A DNA stretch of 64,000 nt from Acholeplasmataceae bacterium (lineage in GTDB: Bacteria > Bacillota_I > Bacilli_A > Acholeplasmatales > Acholeplasmataceae): the NCBI GenBank assembly GCA_963675245.1, contig OY775910.1, positions 384,001 through 448,000 of the forward strand, given 5' to 3'. A program made the position numbers and the translations under genes. The notes beneath the pieces are model-generated. The model saw nothing but the letters and a program-made list of their open reading frames with translations, was not told the DNA's origin and ran no database searches. Positions 16,552 to 63,504 of this stretch are shown here, piece by piece; position 1 is the first letter of the stretch, and each line of letters opens with the position of its first letter.

Positions 16552-19536
16552 GTGAACACAATGAATTTTAACAAGACAATAAGGAGATTTGCGGTTCTTT
16601 TTTTAAGTCTCGCGAGTATTCTTACATTGGCAGCCTGTGCACAAACCGATACTTTCCCAATTGGAGATCTCGGAGATACCGTCTACGCATCAGTCGGTGA
16701 TTACAGTGTAACAGAAGCCGAATTATACACCCAATTACGTTTACAAGGCTCATCAGCACTCGTAGACATTATTGACAAAATCTTATTTGAATCAGAAATT
16801 ACTGAAGCAAAAAACTTACTCGCTTCTGGTGATGCAGATACAGTTGAATTTCTAACCAATGAAGTGAATGCTGCCATCTATGGAACTGCTTCTACCATTG
16901 GTTATACAGTGGCTGATACAGAAGAACTTGAAGACCTTCAAGATTTCCAAAGTGACCGTTATGAACTATACGTTCGTGCTCTTGAAATCTTCGCTGACTC
17001 TTTATACTTAACTGATAATGCAGTTGATGTTGATGCACTCATTGATGACTTACTCGCATTAGGAGATACGTTTACTGGTTATGAAGATATTCCAGTATTA
17101 GTTGATGTTTATGCGGTTAGAGTTGCTGAATGGTTATATGCTAAAGATTTATTAGCTGATGAAGTTAACGATGAAGAAAGTAGTCAATACATTGAAGAAG
17201 CTGATGTTGTTAGTTACTATAAATCACAAGAAGAGGACAAATATGATGTTAATGCACTCGTTGTTCGTTTCTTGAATTTAAATGAAGCTAACGCTGCTTT
17301 ATTCGAAGTTGGTATTAAAGCTGATTCGAAAGGTAATTGGTATCAAATCCCTGATATTAGAGTCATTGATTTAACTGATCCTGACAACGGCTATATCGTT
17401 GATATTCTTGATGAACTTGAAATTGATTATTCTAATCAAGCAAACATTTCAATTGATGATTATGAAGCTTACTACAGAGCATATGTCATTAACACAGCAC
17501 GTCAAGATGGCACAACAGATATCAACTACTTACTTACTACTGCTGACGTAAAAGTTAAGTTCGTAGAATTATACAACTTATTAAATCCAACCGCTACTGT
17601 ACAAATTGATGCTGAAGGTAATGTTGTTGGTGATAGTGATACAGAATACACATCATTATTCACATATGATGAACTTACAAAATTAGATACAACATTAAGA
17701 AGTCACATTTATAATACGTTGACTGCTGAAGCGTTGATGGAAGACCCAGAAGATACATCTTCAGATACACCTTATTCATCACGTGTACAAACTGGTAGTA
17801 CATATCGTTTCTTAGTCTTTAAGTTAGATGATGACTCTGCTTCTCAAGAAAACATCTTAGTTGAAGATCCTGAAGATGCAGATGTTGAAATCTTTGGTGA
17901 TTCACAAGCAGCTCAAGATAAATATGATGAAATGCTTGCAGAACTCATTGATTCAAAATTAACGGACACATATATTTCAAACAAAATTTCTGATGTCTAT
18001 GATGAAACTACACTTGATATCTATGATCCAGTAATTCGTATTATTTACTCACAAGGTTATGACTACTCCGGTACAGATAAAACACAATCAGGTGATGTCG
18101 TAGCTAAAGTGAATGATACAGAGATCACAGTGCAGCAATTATATGATCGTTTAGAAAAAGCATACGGTATTAACTTAGCATACGATATCCTCGTGAATGA
18201 ATATTTAGATGCATCTGAATTATATACAGTTGATAGTGATAAACTTTCAGATTATCAAGATCAATTTGAAACAATCATTACATCATTCACATCTGATAGT
18301 TATGCACCTACATATCCTGCTTCTATGGGTAGACAAGCATTCTTATTAATTGCATTCGGCGCACAAACAAACGCAGAAGCTATCAACCAATTATATGTTT
18401 ATCCAGACTTAAGACAACAATACATTGATGATATTGAAAATCATTTTGATAACACTAATTCATCAATTTATGAAAAATTTGCAGACCTTGCTGGTCAACA
18501 ATATGATTACGATAAAGGTATTAGAGTAAGTCATTTACTTGTTTATGTTGACCAAGATGCAAACGGTACACCAGATGACCCTCAAGAATATTTAGATGGT
18601 TTATCAGCTGCTGCTAGAGCAGATGTTGAAGCTGGTGTTATCGATCTCGTTGATTATGTTTATGATCAAGTTGGTGATTACACAAGCATCTCTTCAGCAC
18701 TTTCAACACTAGCTGCTAGTTACGATTCTGCTATCCGTCTTGAAAGAGGTCGTTACCAAACAACACCTTATGAAGTCATCGATGAAGACCAATGGGTCCA
18801 ATTCCGTCTCTTGGGATTAAACCTCAAATTCGAATCACTCTCGATGGAAATCACTAACGCATCAAATTTATTGAGTAGTTCTTCTATTCTCGATCCAGCT
18901 TTCTATGAAAGAGCAATGACATTATATGACGATCTATATGAGTTAAGAGATGAAGATGGTGTTCTTCCATACTTAGACTTATATGAAGATTTCACATTTG
19001 ATGACAGTCTTTCATTCGCTGATATCACTGATTCAGAAAATGGTGTTGCAAATATTCAATCAACATTCGGTTGGCACTTCATCCTTGTTACATCTATTTC
19101 AGATAAATCAAGTGCAATGTTAGAAGCTGCTGATGATACTGATGGCGATTATGTAGCAACACTTGAAGATGATTCTACAATCAACTTATACAACGAAACA
19201 AGTGATGCATTAACAGCAAATCAAATTGAGTACTACTTAAAGAGCCAAGATGCTGATGAAGCATTCAACTTCGATAGTGATGTTCAAACGGCTTTAAATA
19301 CATACTTCTCACCAGTCTTATCAATCTATCAAGGCACTTACATGCAACGTGAATTAATCTTTAGATTATTAGATGATATGACATTCGGTAATAGTGCTAA
19401 TTCAGATAGAGTTGCGATGATTAGAGCAATCAACCGTCGTCAATTAGCAACATATCAACTTTCTGTAAATGGTGGCGTATATGATGAAAACTACGCTAAC
19501 CTATATGGTAACCTGTTCACAATCCTTGAAGGTTAA
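16552..19536 (+). CDS. Very large acidic lipoprotein, PrsA/SurA-like foldase
   Basis: Lipobox LTLAAC; two PrsA-like N-terminal motifs; parvulin-like VSHLLVY and IQSTFGWHFILV. Confidence 0.65.
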   Translation: MNTMNFNKTIRRFAVLFLSLASILTLAACAQTDTFPIGDLGDTVYASVGDYSVTEAELYTQLRLQGSSALVDIIDKILFESEITEAKNLLASGDADTVEFLTNEVNAAIYGTASTIGYTVADTEELEDLQDFQSDRYELYVRALEIFADSLYLTDNAVDVDALIDDLLALGDTFTGYEDIPVLVDVYAVRVAEWLYAKDLLADEVNDEESSQYIEEADVVSYYKSQEEDKYDVNALVVRFLNLNEANAALFEVGIKADSKGNWYQIPDIRVIDLTDPDNGYIVDILDELEIDYSNQANISIDDYEAYYRAYVINTARQDGTTDINYLLTTADVKVKFVELYNLLNPTATVQIDAEGNVVGDSDTEYTSLFTYDELTKLDTTLRSHIYNTLTAEALMEDPEDTSSDTPYSSRVQTGSTYRFLVFKLDDDSASQENILVEDPEDADVEIFGDSQAAQDKYDEMLAELIDSKLTDTYISNKISDVYDETTLDIYDPVIRIIYSQGYDYSGTDKTQSGDVVAKVNDTEITVQQLYDRLEKAYGINLAYDILVNEYLDASELYTVDSDKLSDYQDQFETIITSFTSDSYAPTYPASMGRQAFLLIAFGAQTNAEAINQLYVYPDLRQQYIDDIENHFDNTNSSIYEKFADLAGQQYDYDKGIRVSHLLVYVDQDANGTPDDPQEYLDGLSAAARADVEAGVIDLVDYVYDQVGDYTSISSALSTLAASYDSAIRLERGRYQTTPYEVIDEDQWVQFRLLGLNLKFESLSMEITNASNLLSSSSILDPAFYERAMTLYDDLYELRDEDGVLPYLDLYEDFTFDDSLSFADITDSENGVANIQSTFGWHFILVTSISDKSSAMLEAADDTDGDYVATLEDDSTINLYNETSDALTANQIEYYLKSQDADEAFNFDSDVQTALNTYFSPVLSIYQGTYMQRELIFRLLDDMTFGNSANSDRVAMIRAINRRQLATYQLSVNGGVYDENYANLYGNLFTILEG

Positions 19537-19557: not shown

Positions 19558-21021
19558 GGTTCTCTGTCAAGGATAGGGGTACCGAATAAGTAAATCAATG
19601 AAAAGCGTATTTTTAGGTGATTCATCTAAATGCGTTTTTTCATTATGCACTTAATGTGTAATCTTTGTTGTAAAGAAAGAGAATTCTAGATCTGAACCTG
19701 TTGAAATCAGTAAATCCATAAGCTGTTCTTTTAATGACTTTAATAAAGTTATTAATACCTTCGACAATGCCATTCGTCATCTTTTTACGTGTTTCAGGAT
19801 GAAGGTCAAATGATTGAACGATTTCTTGACGCCAATTGATAAATGTTTTCTTAATATCTCTAAATTCTTTGGTGGTTGCGTGTCTGAGTAGATCAATGAA
19901 TTGATTGATAAAAGCCGGTGCCTCTTCATAAGATAATGTTTCTATGCTGGTTTGAAAGAGATCTTTAAGATGAAAAGCTTCTTTTAAATCCGGGTGAAGA
20001 TTCGCTGCGATATCATGTATGACATAATCATTGACGTTTTGTTCTAAGAGATGATGGTAGTAATAAGTGTCATTCAAGTCGCTCGGTGACTTCATCAAGA
20101 GCTTCCAATGCTTCTTTAATATCTTATAGTTGATAGAATCCTCATCAAATGTTTTCATAATGCGTATTCTTACGGCGTTGAATGACCAATAGATATATCT
20201 TAAGAAGTGGAATGTGTCTGCGATAATGCGCGCATGAGGTAAATAAGCTTTCACGATATTCCGGTACGGTGCCCATAGGTCCATAATGACGTTTTTAACG
20301 TTGCTGCGCTCTTCATAAGGTATTTGACTGAAGTAATTCTTTAACCAGTCTGTCCGTCTGTTTCTCATCACGTCTATCACTTTCTTGTTGATGGGATCAC
20401 AGATGACAAAGGCGTATTTGCCATAGCCGAGGTTGCGCTTTTTAAATTCATCAATACTGATCGTTTCAGATAGTTTTAACCTGCTCGGTTGGATGTGTTT
20501 ATCGATATGTCTCATCGCTGTTGGCACAGAGACATTCAAACGTTTCGCGATGGCTGTATAGCTTTGGACATATTCAGCTTCCCTTAAGATGTGATGCTTC
20601 GTGACATTGGATATCTTATTGAAACGCTCAACGAACTGATTAGGTTCTGGGAACCGCTTGTGGCAGTGTTTACAGACATACCGTCTTCGTCTGTATTTTA
20701 AATACACATGGTAGCCATTGATGACACCATGCTTAATGACTCTATCTCTATAGTCGTGAACTTTAGAAGTGTAACTCCCACAATGTGGACATAATTGATA
20801 GCCTTGTGTGAATCTCAAATGGACATGCATATCATTCTCAATGGTCTCTATTTGCTTAATCTTTAAGTGCTCGTCTTCAATTCTTAGTACTTTCTTGATA
20901 TAATTGTCTTGCATAAGTAAACTCCTTATCTAAAGTGTGTGGTTACCTTTATTATAAGATTTACTTATGCTTTTTTATATCCCTTTATAAAATCATCCAC
21001 CCCTAACATAATTATAGAGCC
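19558..21021 (-). mobile_element. ISL3-family insertion sequence, 1464 bp, with 8-bp target-site duplication TAAATAAA
   Basis: Ends GGTTCT...AGAGCC with imperfect IR (both share TAGGGGT); identical TAAATAAA at 19550-19557 and 21022-21029. Confidence 0.93.
19643..20914 (-). CDS. ISL3-family transposase
   Basis: Zn finger CPHCG...CKHC, ISIDEF, MDLWAPY, ADTFHF, TNGIVEGINNFIKVIKRTAYGF. Confidence 0.96.
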   Translation of the reverse strand: MQDNYIKKVLRIEDEHLKIKQIETIENDMHVHLRFTQGYQLCPHCGSYTSKVHDYRDRVIKHGVINGYHVYLKYRRRRYVCKHCHKRFPEPNQFVERFNKISNVTKHHILREAEYVQSYTAIAKRLNVSVPTAMRHIDKHIQPSRLKLSETISIDEFKKRNLGYGKYAFVICDPINKKVIDVMRNRRTDWLKNYFSQIPYEERSNVKNVIMDLWAPYRNIVKAYLPHARIIADTFHFLRYIYWSFNAVRIRIMKTFDEDSINYKILKKHWKLLMKSPSDLNDTYYYHHLLEQNVNDYVIHDIAANLHPDLKEAFHLKDLFQTSIETLSYEEAPAFINQFIDLLRHATTKEFRDIKKTFINWRQEIVQSFDLHPETRKKMTNGIVEGINNFIKVIKRTAYGFTDFNRFRSRILFLYNKDYTLSA

Positions 21022-38199: not shown

Positions 38200-39150
38200 C
38201 TAAACTTGAATAGCTAAATCCTTTGCATAATAATATGATATAAATCCAAAGTCTTCGGTATTCAACCAACCACTTTCTTTATGTGATGCTTCACTAATTT
38301 CATTTGTATTAAAATATTTAAAGTGTGAATAGATCGCTTCAGCAATTTGAATTTCTTCTTCTGATAAGCTCGTATTTAATGGATCTTTTTGATATGTGAT
38401 AGATGTTCGATTTTCTTCGTCTTTTTCAAAAGATACATAAGGATTTTGATCATACTTCCATTCAGCATTATTAGGTACGGGTCCAAAAGATAATTTAACA
38501 TATTTAGAACCAGTAATACTCTTACCTAATTTGTTAAATGCATTAAAATCTGTATAATATAACAATTTGTTTAATTTTGTTAAATATACTGGTTTACTAT
38601 CTTCTACCTGCGTTTTTTTAACAAATAACGCCACCAACTGATGAAATTTCTCGATTGACCAAGATGTATTCCCTTTATTAATCTGATTGTTATGAATATT
38701 TAAATAATTCATAACAGATGACTGTCCTGATTCAGACAGTTTACTTTTGTTTTGCTCAAAATAACGTTCTAAATTGTATGTATCATTGGCACTTAAAATT
38801 GTTTGAGCATTCGTTGCACTAGGTAAGGACCCAAGTTCATACCTTGAAATGGTTATTTCCCCAAAACCTAACAATCTAGAAAAGTCTCTTTGTGTTAAGT
38901 CCAGTTTTTTTCTTGTTTGAATGATTTCTTCAATAGTAGGTAAGTCGTGATCAGCACGATAAGCATCAAAAAATACTTGTTGTACTTCTTCCTCGATTGA
39001 CATGACAAACACTTCTTCATTGCAGGATTTGCAATAGGCTACTTTAACAGGTAATGTGTATGGAATATCTTTGACGTTTCTAGTTACTTTATCTACTTTA
39101 ACAATGTACTCTTCTTTTTTTTCACTTTTAGGGCAATATGCTTCTCTCAT
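38200..39150 (-). CDS. Antitoxin: MqsA-like Zn-ribbon + XRE HTH + DUF4065 (Panacea/SocA) domain
   Basis: YCPKS...YCKSCNE, RKKLDLTQRDFSRLLGFGEITISRYE, TKLNKLLYYTDF...YVKLSFGPVP...EISEASH. Confidence 0.85.
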   Translation of the reverse strand: MREAYCPKSEKKEEYIVKVDKVTRNVKDIPYTLPVKVAYCKSCNEEVFVMSIEEEVQQVFFDAYRADHDLPTIEEIIQTRKKLDLTQRDFSRLLGFGEITISRYELGSLPSATNAQTILSANDTYNLERYFEQNKSKLSESGQSSVMNYLNIHNNQINKGNTSWSIEKFHQLVALFVKKTQVEDSKPVYLTKLNKLLYYTDFNAFNKLGKSITGSKYVKLSFGPVPNNAEWKYDQNPYVSFEKDEENRTSITYQKDPLNTSLSEEEIQIAEAIYSHFKYFNTNEISEASHKESGWLNTEDFGFISYYYAKDLAIQV

Positions 39151-57877: not shown

Positions 57878-60529
57878 ATGTTAGACAAAAAGAAGTATTT
57901 TTTAGGGTTACTTATGATATCAATCCTAGTTTTTGTGTTATCCGGATGTGAGGAATTGTTCAATTCCAATACGAATTCACCAACATCAAAAACTGGAATT
58001 ATCACTGTCAACAATGATCTTTCACCTTTGTTAATTGATGATGATATCGTGTTAGATTTTTCAGTTGGAACATTATCATCATATGATAGCAATTTGATTA
58101 CTTTTAACCTAACTAATAATGAGGCTAATGCAACTGTTGGATTTGAAACAAACGAACATAATGAGGAAGTTGCTATTATACATGCACACAACTTTGGAAC
58201 AGTTGATTTAAAAATCACTTATGAAAGTGATATAACTTATGAATCAGATAAAATCACACTTGTTTTCTCACACTATCCATTAAGAACATCAGAAGATCTT
58301 GCCGATCTTGAAAACTCAAGCGATGTTTTCGTCTTACTAGATGATATTGACATATCAGATGAGACATGGACTCCTATTACAGGCTTTTCTGGAACATTAT
58401 TTGGCAATGGTTTTACAATTTCAAATGTTTCAATCCAAAGTACTTCTGCAGATAATATTGGTTTTTTCGATATTTTGAGTGGTCATGTATATGATTTGAA
58501 ATTAAATGTTGATATCAACGTTACTGGAGGTTATCAAAATATTGGTGGCTTAGCAGGTTCTAGTATTGGTTCAATAGAAAATGTTGAGATTACTGGTCAA
58601 ATTACAGCCCAACAAGGAACAAATGTTGGAGGTGTAGTTGGATTTTCTGATTTAGCCAATTTAAATTCTAATATAAACCACGCAACAATAGTTGGTGATA
58701 ATTCTGTTGGTGGTGTTGGTGGTTTTGTTACCATTGACGAAGAAGAAACTATTGCTGGAAACCAAAACAATGGTACTATTACTGGTAACGGTGATAATAT
58801 CGGTGGTGTTATCGGTAGTTTATCTGGTATTTACAATGACTATTCCGCAAGTGAGACTTATTTAAATAACTTTATAAACACTGGCGAAGTAACAGGATTA
58901 TCTTCAAATGTAGGTGGTATAGTAGGTTTTATTACTTCAACAAACAACTATTCATTTTCTGATCCAGATGAAATTATTTTCTTTATGATGAGTAATTGTA
59001 TTAATCAGGGTATCGTCATTGGTGAAGATTATGTCGGTGGTATTGTTGGAAATGGACATGCTGTTGGTTTAATTGAATATTCAAGTAATAATGCAAATAT
59101 TACTGGTGAAGATTATGTCGGTGGTTTTCTCGGTTTTGGTAAATGGGCAGATATTAACGGTGCAGTAAATGAAGTCATTGTTACTGGGGATGCTTACGTT
59201 GGCGGTATTGCAGGATTTGGTGCAGAATTTAGCGAGTGTGAAAACAGTGGTTCTATTATCTCTAATCACACGATTTCGGTAGAAACTGAACTTGTATCTT
59301 ATGTTGGTGGTATAGCAGGGTATATGACACTCGCAAATGACTGTTTTAACAATTCAGATATCACAGTTAACACAGGTGGTGCATATGTCGGCGGTATTGC
59401 AGGTTACATTGCTTCTGCAGAAGAAGTAACCATAGCTAATAATGAAAATAATGGCGATATCTCAAGTACTGGAGAAAGTGTTGGCGGTATTTTTGGGGCA
59501 AGTGTTGGTGTTTTTCATGATTATTCTTCTACTTCAGCATATTTAAATAACAACGTAAACAATGGAGATATTTATAGTACGCAGTCAAATGTGGGTGGTA
59601 TTATTGGTTATTCATCTTCTATTAATAAATATTCATTTGCAGATGATATAGACCGTATGTTTTTAGTCATTTCAAATAGCACTAATACTGGTACAATTAC
59701 GGGTGATAATTATGTAGGTGGTATTGTGGGCAATGGACTATCAGTATCGGATATCAATTATAGTACAAATTCAGCAAACATTACCGGTGCAGATTATGTA
59801 GGTGGATATTTAGGGTATGGTAAATATGCTAATTTTAATCAATTAACAAACGATAATACAATTACAGGTAAAACATACGTAGGTGGTATTGCTGGATATG
59901 CAAATGAATTCTATGATTGTACAAATAACGGATCTATTATTTCAACTGGTGTTACAGTTGTTAATACATTGTTCGTAGTTTATGTAGGCGGCATCGCTGG
60001 ATACATGACATTAGCCACAGATTGTATTAATAATGCGGATATTGACGTGTCAAATGAAGGTGATTATGTTGGTGGAATTGCGGGTTATATGTTAATTGAT
60101 GAATTAATAAAAGTTGAGGGTAACGAAAATAATGGCGATATTACAAGTTCAGGAGATTATGTTGGTGGCATTGTTGGTTCTATTATTGGTAAATATGATG
60201 ATTATCATTCAACATCAGCAGACTTTACAGAAAATATAAATCGTGGCAATATTACGGGCTATGGATTTGTAGGGGGATTGATTGGTTATCAAGGATCAAA
60301 TAATACGTATACGTTCGCTGATGAAACTGAACAACTCTATATTAATATTTCAAATTGTGAAAATAGCGGAGATATCACTGGTATAAACTATGTCGGTGGT
60401 TTGATTGGTTATGCAACTCATGCATATAGTTCAGATAGTTTATGGAATACAAACACATCTATTTGTATTATTACAGCTGATGAAAATGGCGGTATAATTT
60501 ATGGCTTTATTAGAAATGTGAAAAGTTAG
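57878..60529 (+). CDS. GLUG-repeat surface lipoprotein
   Basis: VLSGC lipobox; LLDDIDI...WTPI..FSGTLFGNGFTISN; many YVGGIAG/NxGxI repeats. Confidence 0.85.
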   Translation: MLDKKKYFLGLLMISILVFVLSGCEELFNSNTNSPTSKTGIITVNNDLSPLLIDDDIVLDFSVGTLSSYDSNLITFNLTNNEANATVGFETNEHNEEVAIIHAHNFGTVDLKITYESDITYESDKITLVFSHYPLRTSEDLADLENSSDVFVLLDDIDISDETWTPITGFSGTLFGNGFTISNVSIQSTSADNIGFFDILSGHVYDLKLNVDINVTGGYQNIGGLAGSSIGSIENVEITGQITAQQGTNVGGVVGFSDLANLNSNINHATIVGDNSVGGVGGFVTIDEEETIAGNQNNGTITGNGDNIGGVIGSLSGIYNDYSASETYLNNFINTGEVTGLSSNVGGIVGFITSTNNYSFSDPDEIIFFMMSNCINQGIVIGEDYVGGIVGNGHAVGLIEYSSNNANITGEDYVGGFLGFGKWADINGAVNEVIVTGDAYVGGIAGFGAEFSECENSGSIISNHTISVETELVSYVGGIAGYMTLANDCFNNSDITVNTGGAYVGGIAGYIASAEEVTIANNENNGDISSTGESVGGIFGASVGVFHDYSSTSAYLNNNVNNGDIYSTQSNVGGIIGYSSSINKYSFADDIDRMFLVISNSTNTGTITGDNYVGGIVGNGLSVSDINYSTNSANITGADYVGGYLGYGKYANFNQLTNDNTITGKTYVGGIAGYANEFYDCTNNGSIISTGVTVVNTLFVVYVGGIAGYMTLATDCINNADIDVSNEGDYVGGIAGYMLIDELIKVEGNENNGDITSSGDYVGGIVGSIIGKYDDYHSTSADFTENINRGNITGYGFVGGLIGYQGSNNTYTFADETEQLYINISNCENSGDITGINYVGGLIGYATHAYSSDSLWNTNTSICIITADENGGIIYGFIRNVKS

Positions 60530-60642: not shown

Positions 60643-61491
60643 TTAATATGCTACAGTTACAAGTACCCCTCTTTTCTTCTTTCGCAAGACATACCATGTA
60701 CCTACACCAAGCGCTAATGCGATATTAACAACTGACCATATCCAATACCCTGGTTGAGGAACATCTTCCATAAACAATACTGGGAAGAATGGAACTGAGA
60801 CATTGCTTATTGTATGCATGATCCATGGAATGATTAACTTCTTTCCAGATAAATTATATAGGATACCAATCACGACTGACCAACTTGTCGTGAATAACAC
60901 GAATGTGATAAACGGATAAAATGAATGTCCTTCGCCTTGGATTAACCATAGTGGTGCATGCCATACGCCCCATAATACACCGATTAATAAGCTCGCAGGT
61001 ATAATGCCTATTTTATCTTGTAGTGGAGATTGGATGAATCCTCTCCACCCAAACTCTTCTTGTCCACCACCTACAAAGAAAATCATTAAAGTATATGGAA
61101 TGAATAACACATAAGGAGATATCTCCATATCAGTGGGTATTAATGTATCAAGTAAGATATCACTGCCTAATAGGTTTGTTCCATAGTGAGCTATGATGGT
61201 TGTGATAAACCCAAACAGCACAGCAATCAGATAGAATTTCCAATGTGCCTTGAGATCAAAAGATCTTTTAAAGAACGCTTTAACAGCTAGCCATTTTCCT
61301 TGTGAGTATGTGAGGATAGTTGCTGAGACGAGTGGTCCAAACGCACCTAATATCACAACGAGACTAATGAGTGATGACAATGTATCTGTCATCAAATATA
61401 ATCCAAATGTAGGTAAAACAAATGGTAACCATAATACCCAAGCCCAAACATACGTATAAATAAAATATTTGACAATTGTTTTATTATTCAT
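60643..61491 (-). CDS. CPBP (Abi/CAAX) intramembrane glutamic endopeptidase, copy 1
   Basis: EEFGWRG, WGVWHAP, HTISN; start re-set to ATG 61491. Confidence 0.92.
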   Translation of the reverse strand: MNNKTIVKYFIYTYVWAWVLWLPFVLPTFGLYLMTDTLSSLISLVVILGAFGPLVSATILTYSQGKWLAVKAFFKRSFDLKAHWKFYLIAVLFGFITTIIAHYGTNLLGSDILLDTLIPTDMEISPYVLFIPYTLMIFFVGGGQEEFGWRGFIQSPLQDKIGIIPASLLIGVLWGVWHAPLWLIQGEGHSFYPFITFVLFTTSWSVVIGILYNLSGKKLIIPWIMHTISNVSVPFFPVLFMEDVPQPGYWIWSVVNIALALGVGTWYVLRKKKRGVLVTVAY

Positions 61492-61578
61492 TTTATGACT
61501 CCTGTTCTTGTTAATTTCTAACTTAAGCATACCACCAACAGAACAGGATGTAGCACAACGGTTTGTTGCAAGATAATA

Positions 61579-61815
61579 TTAAAAAACACCCTTGATTTCA
61601 AGGATATCTTCTAATTTAACATCTAACAATTGTGATAATACAACTAGGTGTTCAATCTTAGGTAATTTAAACCCATTAACCCAGTCATATATAACCCTTG
61701 CAGTGTTAAGATTCAAATATTCAGCAATAACGTCATACGACATGCCTGATCTTTGAATAAGTGTTCGTAAATTATCGCCAGTTTTATCTCTGTCAATAAC
61801 CATTGATTGATCCAT
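61579..61815 (-). CDS. Small XRE-family HTH regulator
   Basis: AAGGAGG SD; TGDNLRTLIQRSGMSYDVIAEYL...VIYDWVNGFKLPKIEHLVVLSQLLDVKLEDIL. Confidence 0.9.
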   Translation of the reverse strand: MDQSMVIDRDKTGDNLRTLIQRSGMSYDVIAEYLNLNTARVIYDWVNGFKLPKIEHLVVLSQLLDVKLEDILEIKGVF

Positions 61816-61937
61816 ATTAACTACCTCCTTTGGAATTAACTCTTTAATTCACATCTATAAAATGAATATCAGGTAGTCTTTGGATCAATTTCTAAATTAT
61901 AATAAATTTCTATTTTTGTCAATAGCATTTATATTCT

Positions 61938-62008
61938 TTGAACTATCAGTACAAAAATTAGCCTTGAACTAGTAGTACATTGTATAGAACATATCATTAA
62001 ACTATAAT
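61938..62008 (+). promoter_or_regulatory. Sigma70-type promoter with two upstream 16-bp operator-like repeats
   Basis: TTGTAT(61980-85)-N17-TATAAT(62003-08); TTGAACTATCAGTACA (61938-53) and TTGAACTAGTAGTACA (61964-79). Confidence 0.7.
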
Positions 62009-62014
62009 AGCGAT

Positions 62015-62575
62015 GTATTAAATGAATTCTTTGAAAATTGAATATCTCACAAGCATATGAAAAACTAGTTTAATCAACTACTATGCACATATTGTTGGGC
62101 ATGGAAGTGTGGCGATAGTCACATCCAGTAATGTTATACTACTTACAAAACATGGTAAGCAATGATATGGTGGTATGTTGAACTTATACATCATAAAGCA
62201 TCAGATCTTTTCGAGGAAGCAATAAACGCTATCGTGGATAGAAACATCAAGTTAGGAAAATGGGTTAGCATCCATAGGTCAAACCTTGAAACGCTCATAA
62301 TTCCTTGTGTCGTTGAAACACCGAAAGGTGCTATAAGAAGAGACTGGGTTGGAGTAGCACAAATTGACATTCTATTTGTTAAATAGATAATGGCTCTGAT
62401 TGTGTGAAACTTGAGGATAACCAATGCCTTTACGGTTTTTATAAAGAGACGGTTAAGATGAGGTAGCTCCTTATCTGTGCCCCGTTACTTACCGGTGGCT
62501 GAATAATGATGAAGTAGGGCATATTACGAGGAAGACTTGGTGAGATATTTAATTTTGAGAGAATTAATTCATTTT
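62015..62575 (+). ncRNA. Large multi-stem structured ncRNA, possibly ROOL-like (family not confirmed)
   Basis: 5' 62025-62053 pairs with 3' 62536-62565; more than 10 internal hairpins including GAAA and UUCG tetraloops; promoter upstream, terminator downstream; no credible ORF. Confidence 0.75.
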
Positions 62576-62580
62576 CACAA

Positions 62581-62610
62581 AAAAATCGTCCAGATGATGG
62601 ATGATTTTTT
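62581..62610. terminator. Bidirectional terminator between the ncRNA and CPBP copy 2
   Basis: AAAAATCGTCCA-GATGA-TGGATGATTTTTT. Confidence 0.75.
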
Positions 62611-62661
62611 AATTTTCTAGATATTAGTTTTGCTTTTTTATTGAATAAATACATATCAGTA

Positions 62662-63504
62662 TCATGCTGCAACAAGATACCTATGATTCTTTTGATGGAT
62701 CATATACCACGACCCTAAGACAATCGCGAATGTGATATTAACAATCACCCACACCCAATAACCAGGTTGAGGGACATCTGCCATAAACAATACCGGAAAG
62801 AATGGCACCGACACATTACTAATCGTATGCATAATCCAAGGGATGATCAGTCTCTTACCTGATAGATTATATAAAATGCCAATAACGACTGACCAACTTA
62901 TCGTAAATAATAAGAAAGCAATAAACGGATAATAAGAATGTCCTTCTCCTTCTATTAACCAGAGAGGGGCATGCCAAAATCCCCATAATAACCCTATCAA
63001 TAAACTCGCTTTAATCAATCCCATTTTATCTTGTAGTGGAGACTGAATAAACCCTCTCCATCCAAATTCTTCTTGACCTCCACCCACGAAAAAGATCATT
63101 AAGGTATAGGGAATGAATAACACAAAGACAGGCACACCTAAATCCGTTGGTATTAACGTATTCGGAAGTGTATCAATATTTAATAGTCCTGTACCATAGT
63201 GAGCAATGATGGTTGTAATAAGTGCGAAAAATACGGCCAATACATAAAACTTCCAATTCGTCTTTAAACTTAAAGACCTCTTATAGAATGCTTTAACAGC
63301 TACCCATTTTCCCTGTGAGTAGGTGAGGAGGGTTGCTGCTACGAGCGGTCCAAATGCCCCCAAGATGACTGCCACACTAAGTAAAGATGACAGTGTGTCT
63401 GTCATGTCATATAATCCGAATGTCGGCAAAACAAAAGGTAACCACAATACCCAAGCCCAAACATACGTGTAGATGAAATATCTAACTATCGCTTTATTTT
63501 CCAT
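62662..63504 (-). CDS. CPBP (Abi/CAAX) intramembrane glutamic endopeptidase, copy 2
   Basis: EEFGWRG, WGFWHAP, HTISN; collinear close paralogue of 60643..61491. Confidence 0.92.
   Translation of the reverse strand: MENKAIVRYFIYTYVWAWVLWLPFVLPTFGLYDMTDTLSSLLSVAVILGAFGPLVAATLLTYSQGKWVAVKAFYKRSLSLKTNWKFYVLAVFFALITTIIAHYGTGLLNIDTLPNTLIPTDLGVPVFVLFIPYTLMIFFVGGGQEEFGWRGFIQSPLQDKMGLIKASLLIGLLWGFWHAPLWLIEGEGHSYYPFIAFLLFTISWSVVIGILYNLSGKRLIIPWIMHTISNVSVPFFPVLFMADVPQPGYWVWVIVNITFAIVLGSWYMIHQKNHRYLVAA

Follow-up and report, generated by a model that had tools for sequence, protein, structure and literature searches.

What is encoded at 62015-62610 of the 64,000-nt stretch of the Acholeplasmataceae bacterium chromosome analyzed here (GenBank assembly GCA_963675245.1, contig OY775910.1, positions 384,001 to 448,000; hereafter the window), where a promoter points into a segment with no credible open reading frame (ORF)? 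An earlier note, made from the letters of the DNA, had described an unannotated, highly structured noncoding RNA of ~550-600 nt with its own promoter and terminator, and had left the choice between a relative of the large bacterial RNA ROOL and a new RNA class. Our analyses favor the first of these: judged from its sequence, the RNA is almost certainly a member of the ROOL family. The class is thus already described, and the window RNA is a compact chromosomal ROOL, which removes the novelty of class. The elements of the transcription unit are as follows.

62029..62558, plus strand: ROOL RNA, as matched by Rfam RF03087, with a paired core reaching to about 62025-62565 through a longer terminal helix
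61980..62008, plus strand: predicted ROOL promoter TTGTAT-N17-TATAAT, assigned from its sequence and conserved position, with a predicted transcription start near 62015
62580..62610, unstranded: predicted intrinsic terminator, 13 pairs and a T-run (3 sites found by the scan against 0.6 expected)

The family assignment rests on an Rfam 15 scan of the whole window, in which 62029-62558 of the plus strand matched RF03087 with 194.3 bits (gathering score 99.1; E = 3e-42) over model positions 1-574 of 574. With a score about double the gathering threshold along the full length of the model, the RNA cannot count as a new class. The match was the sole one above threshold in the window and was confined to the plus strand. 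A permissive Rfam scan of 61900-62700 (E ≤ 1) returned no other large-RNA family, GOLLD and OLE included, and added two weak minus-strand matches, both over the terminator hairpin. Across the 1,626,300-bp single-contig genome, ROOL matched once. The plus strand folds with −164.7 kcal/mol (z = −5.2), a value that none of 100 shuffled sequences equaled, as expected for the highly structured RNA that had been proposed; the minus strand gave z = −3.4. Moreover, the sequence blocks of the family, AGUAGC, GUGAAA-N-UUG, UAA-N-CAAU, GGUGGCUGAAUA, CAAUA-R-ACG and UAUAA, are all present in the window RNA, which was aligned with 36 other ROOL sequences.

To compare the fold with that of the family, we transferred the structure line of the Rfam RF03087 alignment to window coordinates. 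Both partners of 138 of the 159 model pairs are found in the window; 117 of these form standard pairs, 18 of them G-U, which agrees with the G-U pairs that the earlier note had taken as a sign of selection on the plus strand. The complementary stretches quoted in that note are all present and pair as claimed, except that one hairpin starts at 62166 and not 62167. The pairing it proposed between the two ends of the RNA is part of the ROOL consensus, in which the terminal helix 62035-50/62540-55 forms 16 of 16 pairs; the outward extension of this helix, 62025-32/62558-65, is taken from the note. Six of its ten local hairpins (62066-80, 62108-23, 62142-59, 62229-41, 62319-30 and 62456-76) lie within the consensus, and the hairpin at 62371-87 falls in a variable linker. 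The remaining three, 62166-95, 62206-17 and 62478-521, clash with consensus helices, as does the long-range helix 62254-58/62301-05; the consensus pairs the strands in question as 62088-93/62164-69, 62201-12/62337-47 and 62213-18/62301-06. The other two long-range helices, 62097-102/62424-29 and 62347-51/62418-22, are outside the nested consensus. The former is disrupted in relatives, and the latter is retained in a subclade of close relatives (see below) without compensatory change and is not preserved across the 36 other ROOLs. Neither the three clashing hairpins nor any of the three long-range helices gained covariation support.

Two further points concern pseudoknots and the linker. The RF03087 covariance model contains no pseudoknots, and three are described for ROOL (Weinberg et al. 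2017, PMC5737381). Pairing of 62347-52 with the conserved UAA-N-CAAU loop, as a pseudoknot common to the family, was sought in the alignment with the 36 other ROOL sequences and was not seen. The second point is the linker:

62366..62399, plus strand: variable linker loop, which aligns to an unstructured insert of the model and holds the hairpin 62371-87

This segment is poorly conserved among relatives, and a disordered, non-conserved linker has been reported inside the ROOL cage (Kretsch et al. 2025, PMC12286853). Two helices at a three-way junction, 62191-94/62506-09 and 62197-99/62498-500, pair perfectly one nucleotide off the Rfam register, with compensatory changes in the subclade. As a separate observation, the loop of the conserved ROOL hairpin at 62457-62475 varies among the window and the related loci L081, L094, L049, L163 and L121, with UAGCU, UCGCU and UCAUGA-type loops; several of the variants hold 4-nt palindromes (AGCU, CAUG), which a symmetric loop-loop contact of two copies would lead one to expect.

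Relatives of the window RNA were collected by scanning two collections, viral contigs and genomes, with a motif over the most conserved ROOL loop. The viral contigs gave 43 motif loci; 20 were submitted to Rfam and 17 proved to be ROOL, with 110-402 bits, 10 of the 17 having tRNA genes at most 700 nt away. The genomes gave 84 motif loci, five of which were ROOL by both nhmmer and Rfam; by our own estimate, the others are near the number that a motif with 17 fixed bases would hit by chance in genomes of that collection. Among the five is a close relative, L121, which comes from an Izemoplasmatales metagenome-assembled genome (MAG), scores 164.5 bits and is 75% identical over 411 nt. A metagenome search with the helix-turn-helix (HTH) protein encoded next to the window RNA added L163 (166.4 bits) and L164 (121.1 bits, truncated where its contig stops). 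By sequence, the window ROOL belongs to a compact subclade with L121 and these two metagenome contigs.

These four sequences make up alignment A3 (n = 4); with so few, the counts speak for the overall fold and not for every helix singly. Under the Rfam-derived structure, 83.0% of the cells were paired, 36 of the 138 pairs had changed on both sides, and the covariation score was 0.292. None of 500 shuffles matched any of these three values, and slid controls gave 4-9 pairs. By comparison, the six non-consensus helices of the earlier note together showed a double change in 1 of 41 pairs, which 310 of 500 shuffles matched. As read from this alignment, then, the ROOL fold is kept by compensatory substitution among the nearest relatives; homologs preserve pairing and not a frame, as the note had supposed for a structured RNA. 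Searches farther afield yielded little. A DNA search of 41 genomes gave two faint partial matches, neither of them ROOL by Rfam at E ≤ 1 and one of them a remnant in a congener described below; blastn in "distant" mode found no match to the window ROOL in 50,697 phage records, and a 22-nt subclade motif had 0 matches in metagenomes. In a nucleotide tree, the HTH-linked ROOLs form three separate long-branched groups, from which we draw no conclusion, the tree being midpoint-rooted on a MAFFT alignment and without support values.

The promoter and terminator of the earlier note were largely borne out. The −10 element matches its consensus at 6 of 6 positions, and its place is conserved in 4 of 4 aligned related loci (TATAAT, TATAAT, TACAAT and TAAAAT), but the −35 element matches TTGACA at just 3 of 6, so that "near-consensus" applies to the −10 half; it is because of this −35 that the promoter scan did not list the site. 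The scan placed the terminator at 62580-62610, and a weak minus-strand match to the terminator stem of Phe_leader falls on the same hairpin. Because this hairpin is flanked by an A-run and a T-run, it can also serve the convergent CPBP gene on the minus strand, whose stop is at 62662.

Divergent from the ROOL gene lies a small regulator-like gene, with its own possible promoter.

61579..61815, minus strand: 78-aa XRE/Cro-type HTH gene, divergent from ROOL, matching Pfam HTH_3 and HTH_26
61896..61922, minus strand: possible promoter of the HTH gene, TTGACA-N15-TATAAT, read by eye

Both Pfam matches are marginal (HTH_3, 23.8 bits against a cut-off of 23; HTH_26, 23.3 bits against 22), and the protein matched no NCBIfam or PADLOC family. 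The putative promoter was not listed by the scan because the scan takes only spacers of 16-18. HTH homologs lie ~70-215 nt from ROOL in seven non-viral loci, namely the window and the six that follow.

L121: HTH 56% identical to the window HTH; HTH then ROOL, same strand
L163 and L164: HTH 65% identical; HTH then ROOL, same strand
L081 and L094 (Erysipelotrichaceae MAGs): HTH 37-38% identical (E = 8e-22 and 8e-20 to the family hidden Markov model); ROOL then HTH
L169 (Ligilactobacillus salivarius UCC118 megaplasmid pMP118): HTH 37% identical; ROOL (130.4 bits) then HTH

The last of these HTH genes is LSL_1884, the HTH regulator gene adjoining the long noncoding RNA (lncRNA) of Cousin et al. 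2017 (PMC5643018), who report that the strains highest in LSL_1884 expression were also highest in ROOL level. When 72,556 plasmids were searched by tblastn with the window HTH, 34 records matched, 33 of which are L. salivarius megaplasmids. The viral side was silent: none of the 43 viral ROOL-pattern loci, taken with 3.5-kb flanks, holds an HTH-family ORF at E ≤ 1e-3, and about 39 of these loci hold ROOL by nhmmer (45 of 49 searched loci were positive, all six non-viral ones being assumed among them). Likewise, the HTH alignment gave 211 pattern matches in viral contigs and no relative. Apart from what Cousin et al. 2017 (PMC5643018) say of LSL_1884, we found no link between ROOL and an HTH family in the openly readable papers that were searched. 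It may be added that some distant HTH homologs (L135, L137 and L143) adjoin clusters of tRNA genes without ROOL.

The spacer between the two divergent genes holds two copies of an inverted repeat.

61965..61979, unstranded: candidate operator O1, TGAAC-N5-GTACA inverted repeat (15 bp), abutting the ROOL −35 element
61939..61953, unstranded: candidate operator O2, a second copy of the repeat, lying toward the HTH gene at 26 bp upstream of O1

O1 and O2 constitute direct repeat family D2 (16 nt, 88% identical, spacing 26). The pattern TGWAC-N5-GTACA recurs at the equivalent place next to the −35 element in 4 of 4 subclade loci (window, L121, L163 and L164). In the 1.63-Mb genome it has 6 sites, 2 of which lie inside the 214-nt HTH-ROOL spacer. 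A repeat of equal geometry and different sequence, TTAAAC-N5-GTTTAA, is found 44-80 nt upstream of ROOL in 3 of 3 Erysipelotrichaceae loci (L081 1264-1280, L094 2444-2460 and L049 2533-2549). In L. salivarius, a copy of the latter with two mismatches, 22 nt upstream of ROOL, is at chance level (1 found against 1.3 expected). Because the geometry of the repeat is constant while its sequence is specific to the lineage, these data suggest pairs of regulator and operator that have diverged together. O1 is centered near −43 of the predicted ROOL promoter, and an operator near −43 is in the typical position for an activator. The repeats are candidate operators to which the HTH protein would bind, and we think it somewhat probable, from this arrangement of sequences, that the protein regulates ROOL transcription.

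Taken whole, the best explanation of the locus is a stand-alone ROOL gene with its own promoter and terminator, and we hold it with high confidence; control by an HTH partner is a somewhat probable addition to it. Several observations weigh against one or another part of it. On the side of the RNA, 194.3 bits is at the low end of the scanned ROOLs, viral ROOLs reaching 275-402 bits in 16 of 17 cases. Twenty-one of the 159 model pairs have no partner in the window, mainly because an 11-bp hairpin, of which 62134-39 alone is left, and a small stem are deleted; given these deletions, assembly of this compact form into an octameric cage would be an extrapolation. The consensus helix 62178-85/62515-22 forms just 4 of 8 pairs, in the window and in relatives alike, and the ~550-600 nt transcript and its ends are predictions from sequence. 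On the side of the HTH gene, the link to ROOL comprises seven loci in three lineages, and the proportion of ROOLs with an HTH neighbor is biased upward because part of the loci were found via the HTH itself. The ROOL of L092, which adjoins tRNA genes, has no HTH homolog, and L049 carries the repeat but just a different, longer HTH protein. HTH homologs of at most 41% identity occur in 52 of 399 other genomes of the class; nhmmer found no ROOL at 29 of their loci that were screened, nor did Rfam cmscan at 20 of these, and two metagenome HTH homologs of 43-47% identity had no ROOL within the available sequence. The order and orientation of HTH gene and ROOL differ by lineage, with the divergent arrangement in the window alone. 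Finally, L. salivarius deleted for ROOL, or for both ROOL and the HTH gene, showed no growth phenotype (Cousin et al. 2017, PMC5643018).

In the wider neighborhood, as the earlier note had remarked, neither prophage nor tRNA genes are near: there are 0 tRNA genes in the window and 0 in the next 20 kb (62 kb upstream and 20 kb downstream of ROOL), and no phage structural gene was seen among the ORFs scanned, including 55 upstream. The upstream ORFs have housekeeping functions (ATP synthase, shikimate pathway, RF-1, RecG and others), apart from one ISL3 transposase gene 41 kb off. ROOL has been found outside prophage-like regions as well (Weinberg et al. 2017, PMC5737381), and because such settings are reported there, the non-prophage context is unusual yet within the description of ROOL. 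Tandem paralogs of a CPBP/Rce1-like membrane protease, 78% identical (60643-61530 and 62662-63504, both on the minus strand), bracket HTH and ROOL; insertion of the module into a tandem duplication, or its capture by one, is possible. A Hachiman-type pair begins 1.2 kb downstream of ROOL, from 63789 on (L002 790-3820); its helicase, a 778-aa DEAD-box protein, matches HamB models (E = 2e-49), and the second gene, of 233 aa, overlaps that of the helicase and has no family match. Beyond the pair come an MFS transporter gene and then a defense island (L002 5182-17531; genome 452-464.5 kb) with two unknown proteins, a Z1/helicase (MzaC-like), HATPase_c_3, a C5 cytosine methylase, MTaX1, an AIPR/AbiU-like protein and a Schlafen-group-3/AbiO-like helicase.

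Genes flanking this region of the window are also found in one congener, G006. Its 813-nt intergenic remnant (L168 9157-9970) holds a 94-nt HTH gene fragment (72% identity) along with 133 nt from the 3′ part of ROOL (69%), and sits among helicase and defense-type genes near the same MFS transporter gene. Because G006 keeps fragments of both HTH and ROOL, the module was probably present in the common ancestor of the two species and decayed in one. Such decay fits the dispensability of ROOL in L. salivarius (Cousin et al. 2017, PMC5643018).

Among alternative explanations, the one that survives best leaves the ROOL assignment intact and ties the HTH gene to ROOL otherwise than through control of ROOL transcription, whether as part of a small mobile or defense cassette, through other target genes, or by binding of the RNA. 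The variable arrangement of the two genes would suit such a tie (HTH before ROOL in L121, L163 and L164, after it in L169, L081 and L094, and divergent in the window), as would the defense-type genes that surround both the window copy and the G006 remnant. It is also in keeping with the separate transcription units and the absence of a phenotype in L. salivarius (Cousin et al. 2017, PMC5643018). However, a role elsewhere does not predict that all four subclade loci keep an inverted repeat at constant spacing from the ROOL promoter, with a different repeat of the same geometry at all three Erysipelotrichaceae loci, nor that a pattern with just 6 sites in the genome should have 2 of them at the HTH-ROOL spacer. 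We therefore treat this alternative as possible and rather doubtful, and transcriptional control of ROOL by the HTH protein as the preferred reading.

A second alternative takes the window locus for a decaying, non-functional relic of an old mobile element. The distribution of ROOL would be in its favor: a search with RF03087 found no ROOL at E 0.001 in any of the 9 other species of the genus or in the one other genus of the family that was covered, the control genomes being silent too, and G006 keeps fragments only. The Rfam score, below that of most phage ROOLs, and the dispensability of ROOL in L. salivarius (PMC5643018) point the same way. Against decay in the window itself, however, stand the full-length match with its promoter and terminator intact, an HTH frame that is likewise intact and 56-65% identical to its orthologs, and compensatory changes relative to relatives, which show continued selection on pairing. 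We consider a relic improbable.

The proposal of a new large-RNA class merely resembling ROOL could appeal to a score about half that of typical phage ROOLs, to the one consensus hairpin that is absent, and to a context that is neither phage nor tRNA island. It is refuted, as far as a covariance model can do so and to the point of being very hard to credit, by a match over the entire model at twice the curated threshold and by shared sequence blocks and covarying helices; moreover, the L. salivarius ROOL, a founding member, scores lower still (130.4 bits) and has the same HTH neighbor. Finally, that the stretch encodes small proteins has a negligible chance of being right: three ORFs of 74, 77 and 78 aa overlap the region and an older annotation had made the L. 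salivarius homolog a hypothetical protein, LSL_1885 (Cousin et al. 2017, PMC5643018), but none of the three matches Pfam, in line with the earlier view that no ORF here is credible, the ROOL of L121 is free of ORFs of at least 60 aa, and substitutions are compensatory in helices rather than frame-preserving.

With the stand-alone ROOL gene and its HTH partner as the working model, solved structures of other ROOLs indicate what the product might form. A transcript of ~550-600 nt would fold into a flat ROOL monomer, eight of which would assemble without protein into a hollow cage, and by analogy with other ROOLs the RNA would be stable and probably abundant. Three distinct ROOL RNAs are reported to form homo-octameric cages (Kretsch et al. 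2025, PMC12286853; commentary on Ling et al., PMC12515178), and because the window RNA is of the same family by covariance model as these cage-forming ROOLs, one would by default expect it to fold and assemble likewise. The RNAs studied by cryo-electron microscopy, ROOL env-120, Enterococcus faecalis ROOL and Firmicutes bacterium CAG:227 ROOL, are longer than that of the window, env-120 having 659 nt (PMC12286853, PMC12515178). In cellular, non-phage loci, ROOL and the small XRE-type HTH gene would form a two-gene module. The HTH protein would most likely bind the 15-bp inverted repeat as a dimer, setting the level of ROOL transcription up or down, and it may also control its own gene, since the second operator copy faces the divergent HTH gene.

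Compared with the family as described (RF03087; PMC5737381), the window RNA shares the whole covariance model, the multi-junction architecture, the sequence blocks and the variable linker. It differs in length, with a match of 530 nt against a family average of 581 nt, in lacking one 11-bp hairpin and a small stem, and in its longer terminal helix; the frequent prophage or tRNA-island context, which is not a defining feature, is absent in the window. The closest counterpart in setting is the 520-nt lncRNA of L. salivarius UCC118 pMP118 (PMC5643018), like the window RNA a compact, cellular, non-phage ROOL adjoining an HTH gene of the same family, and described as a transcript in its own right that is stable and very abundant (Cousin et al. 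2017, PMC5643018). The L. salivarius module is borne on a megaplasmid with the HTH gene downstream on the same strand, whereas that of the window is chromosomal with the HTH gene upstream and divergent, and the operator-like repeat differs between the two. GOLLD and OLE are also large, ornate bacterial RNAs that form RNA-only homo-oligomers, and GOLLD has the phage and tRNA contexts of ROOL; however, their sequences, folds and stoichiometries differ from those of ROOL, and neither has an Rfam match in the window.

Any annotation based on Rfam would call the window RNA a ROOL, so that the value of the locus is in its context. A minimal chromosomal module of HTH gene, operator-like repeat and ROOL is shared by at least three Bacillota-related lineages, one instance being on the L. 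salivarius megaplasmid from which ROOL was originally characterized, and we regard this conserved HTH-operator-ROOL module as a modest new lead. A cognate regulator would offer an experimental handle, as its signal would tell when cells want the cage. A more far-reaching and speculative proposal, which we think unlikely, is that cellular ROOL with its own XRE regulator and operator is a module distinct from phage and tRNA-island ROOLs and inducible in phage-host conflict or stress, the regulator triggering massive ROOL production and the cage sequestering or shielding a cargo. If this were true, the position of the window copy and the G006 remnant among defense genes would be meaningful.

Some other features of the window deserve mention. 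An 883-aa predicted lipoprotein is encoded at 57878-60529 on the plus strand, with many YVGGIAG-like repeats and a strong skew of G over C; it matched no Pfam, NCBIfam or PADLOC model and had no match at the DNA level at the syntenic place in G006. The ISL3-family transposase gene (19643-20914, minus strand) is the only mobile-element gene seen in the window and lies beside an ORF of 994 aa (16552-19536) without a Pfam match. At 38200-39150 on the minus strand, a 316-aa protein combines MqsA-antitoxin-like, HTH_3 and SocA/Panacea domains and is followed by a 111-aa gene without a family match; the two genes may form a toxin-antitoxin pair.

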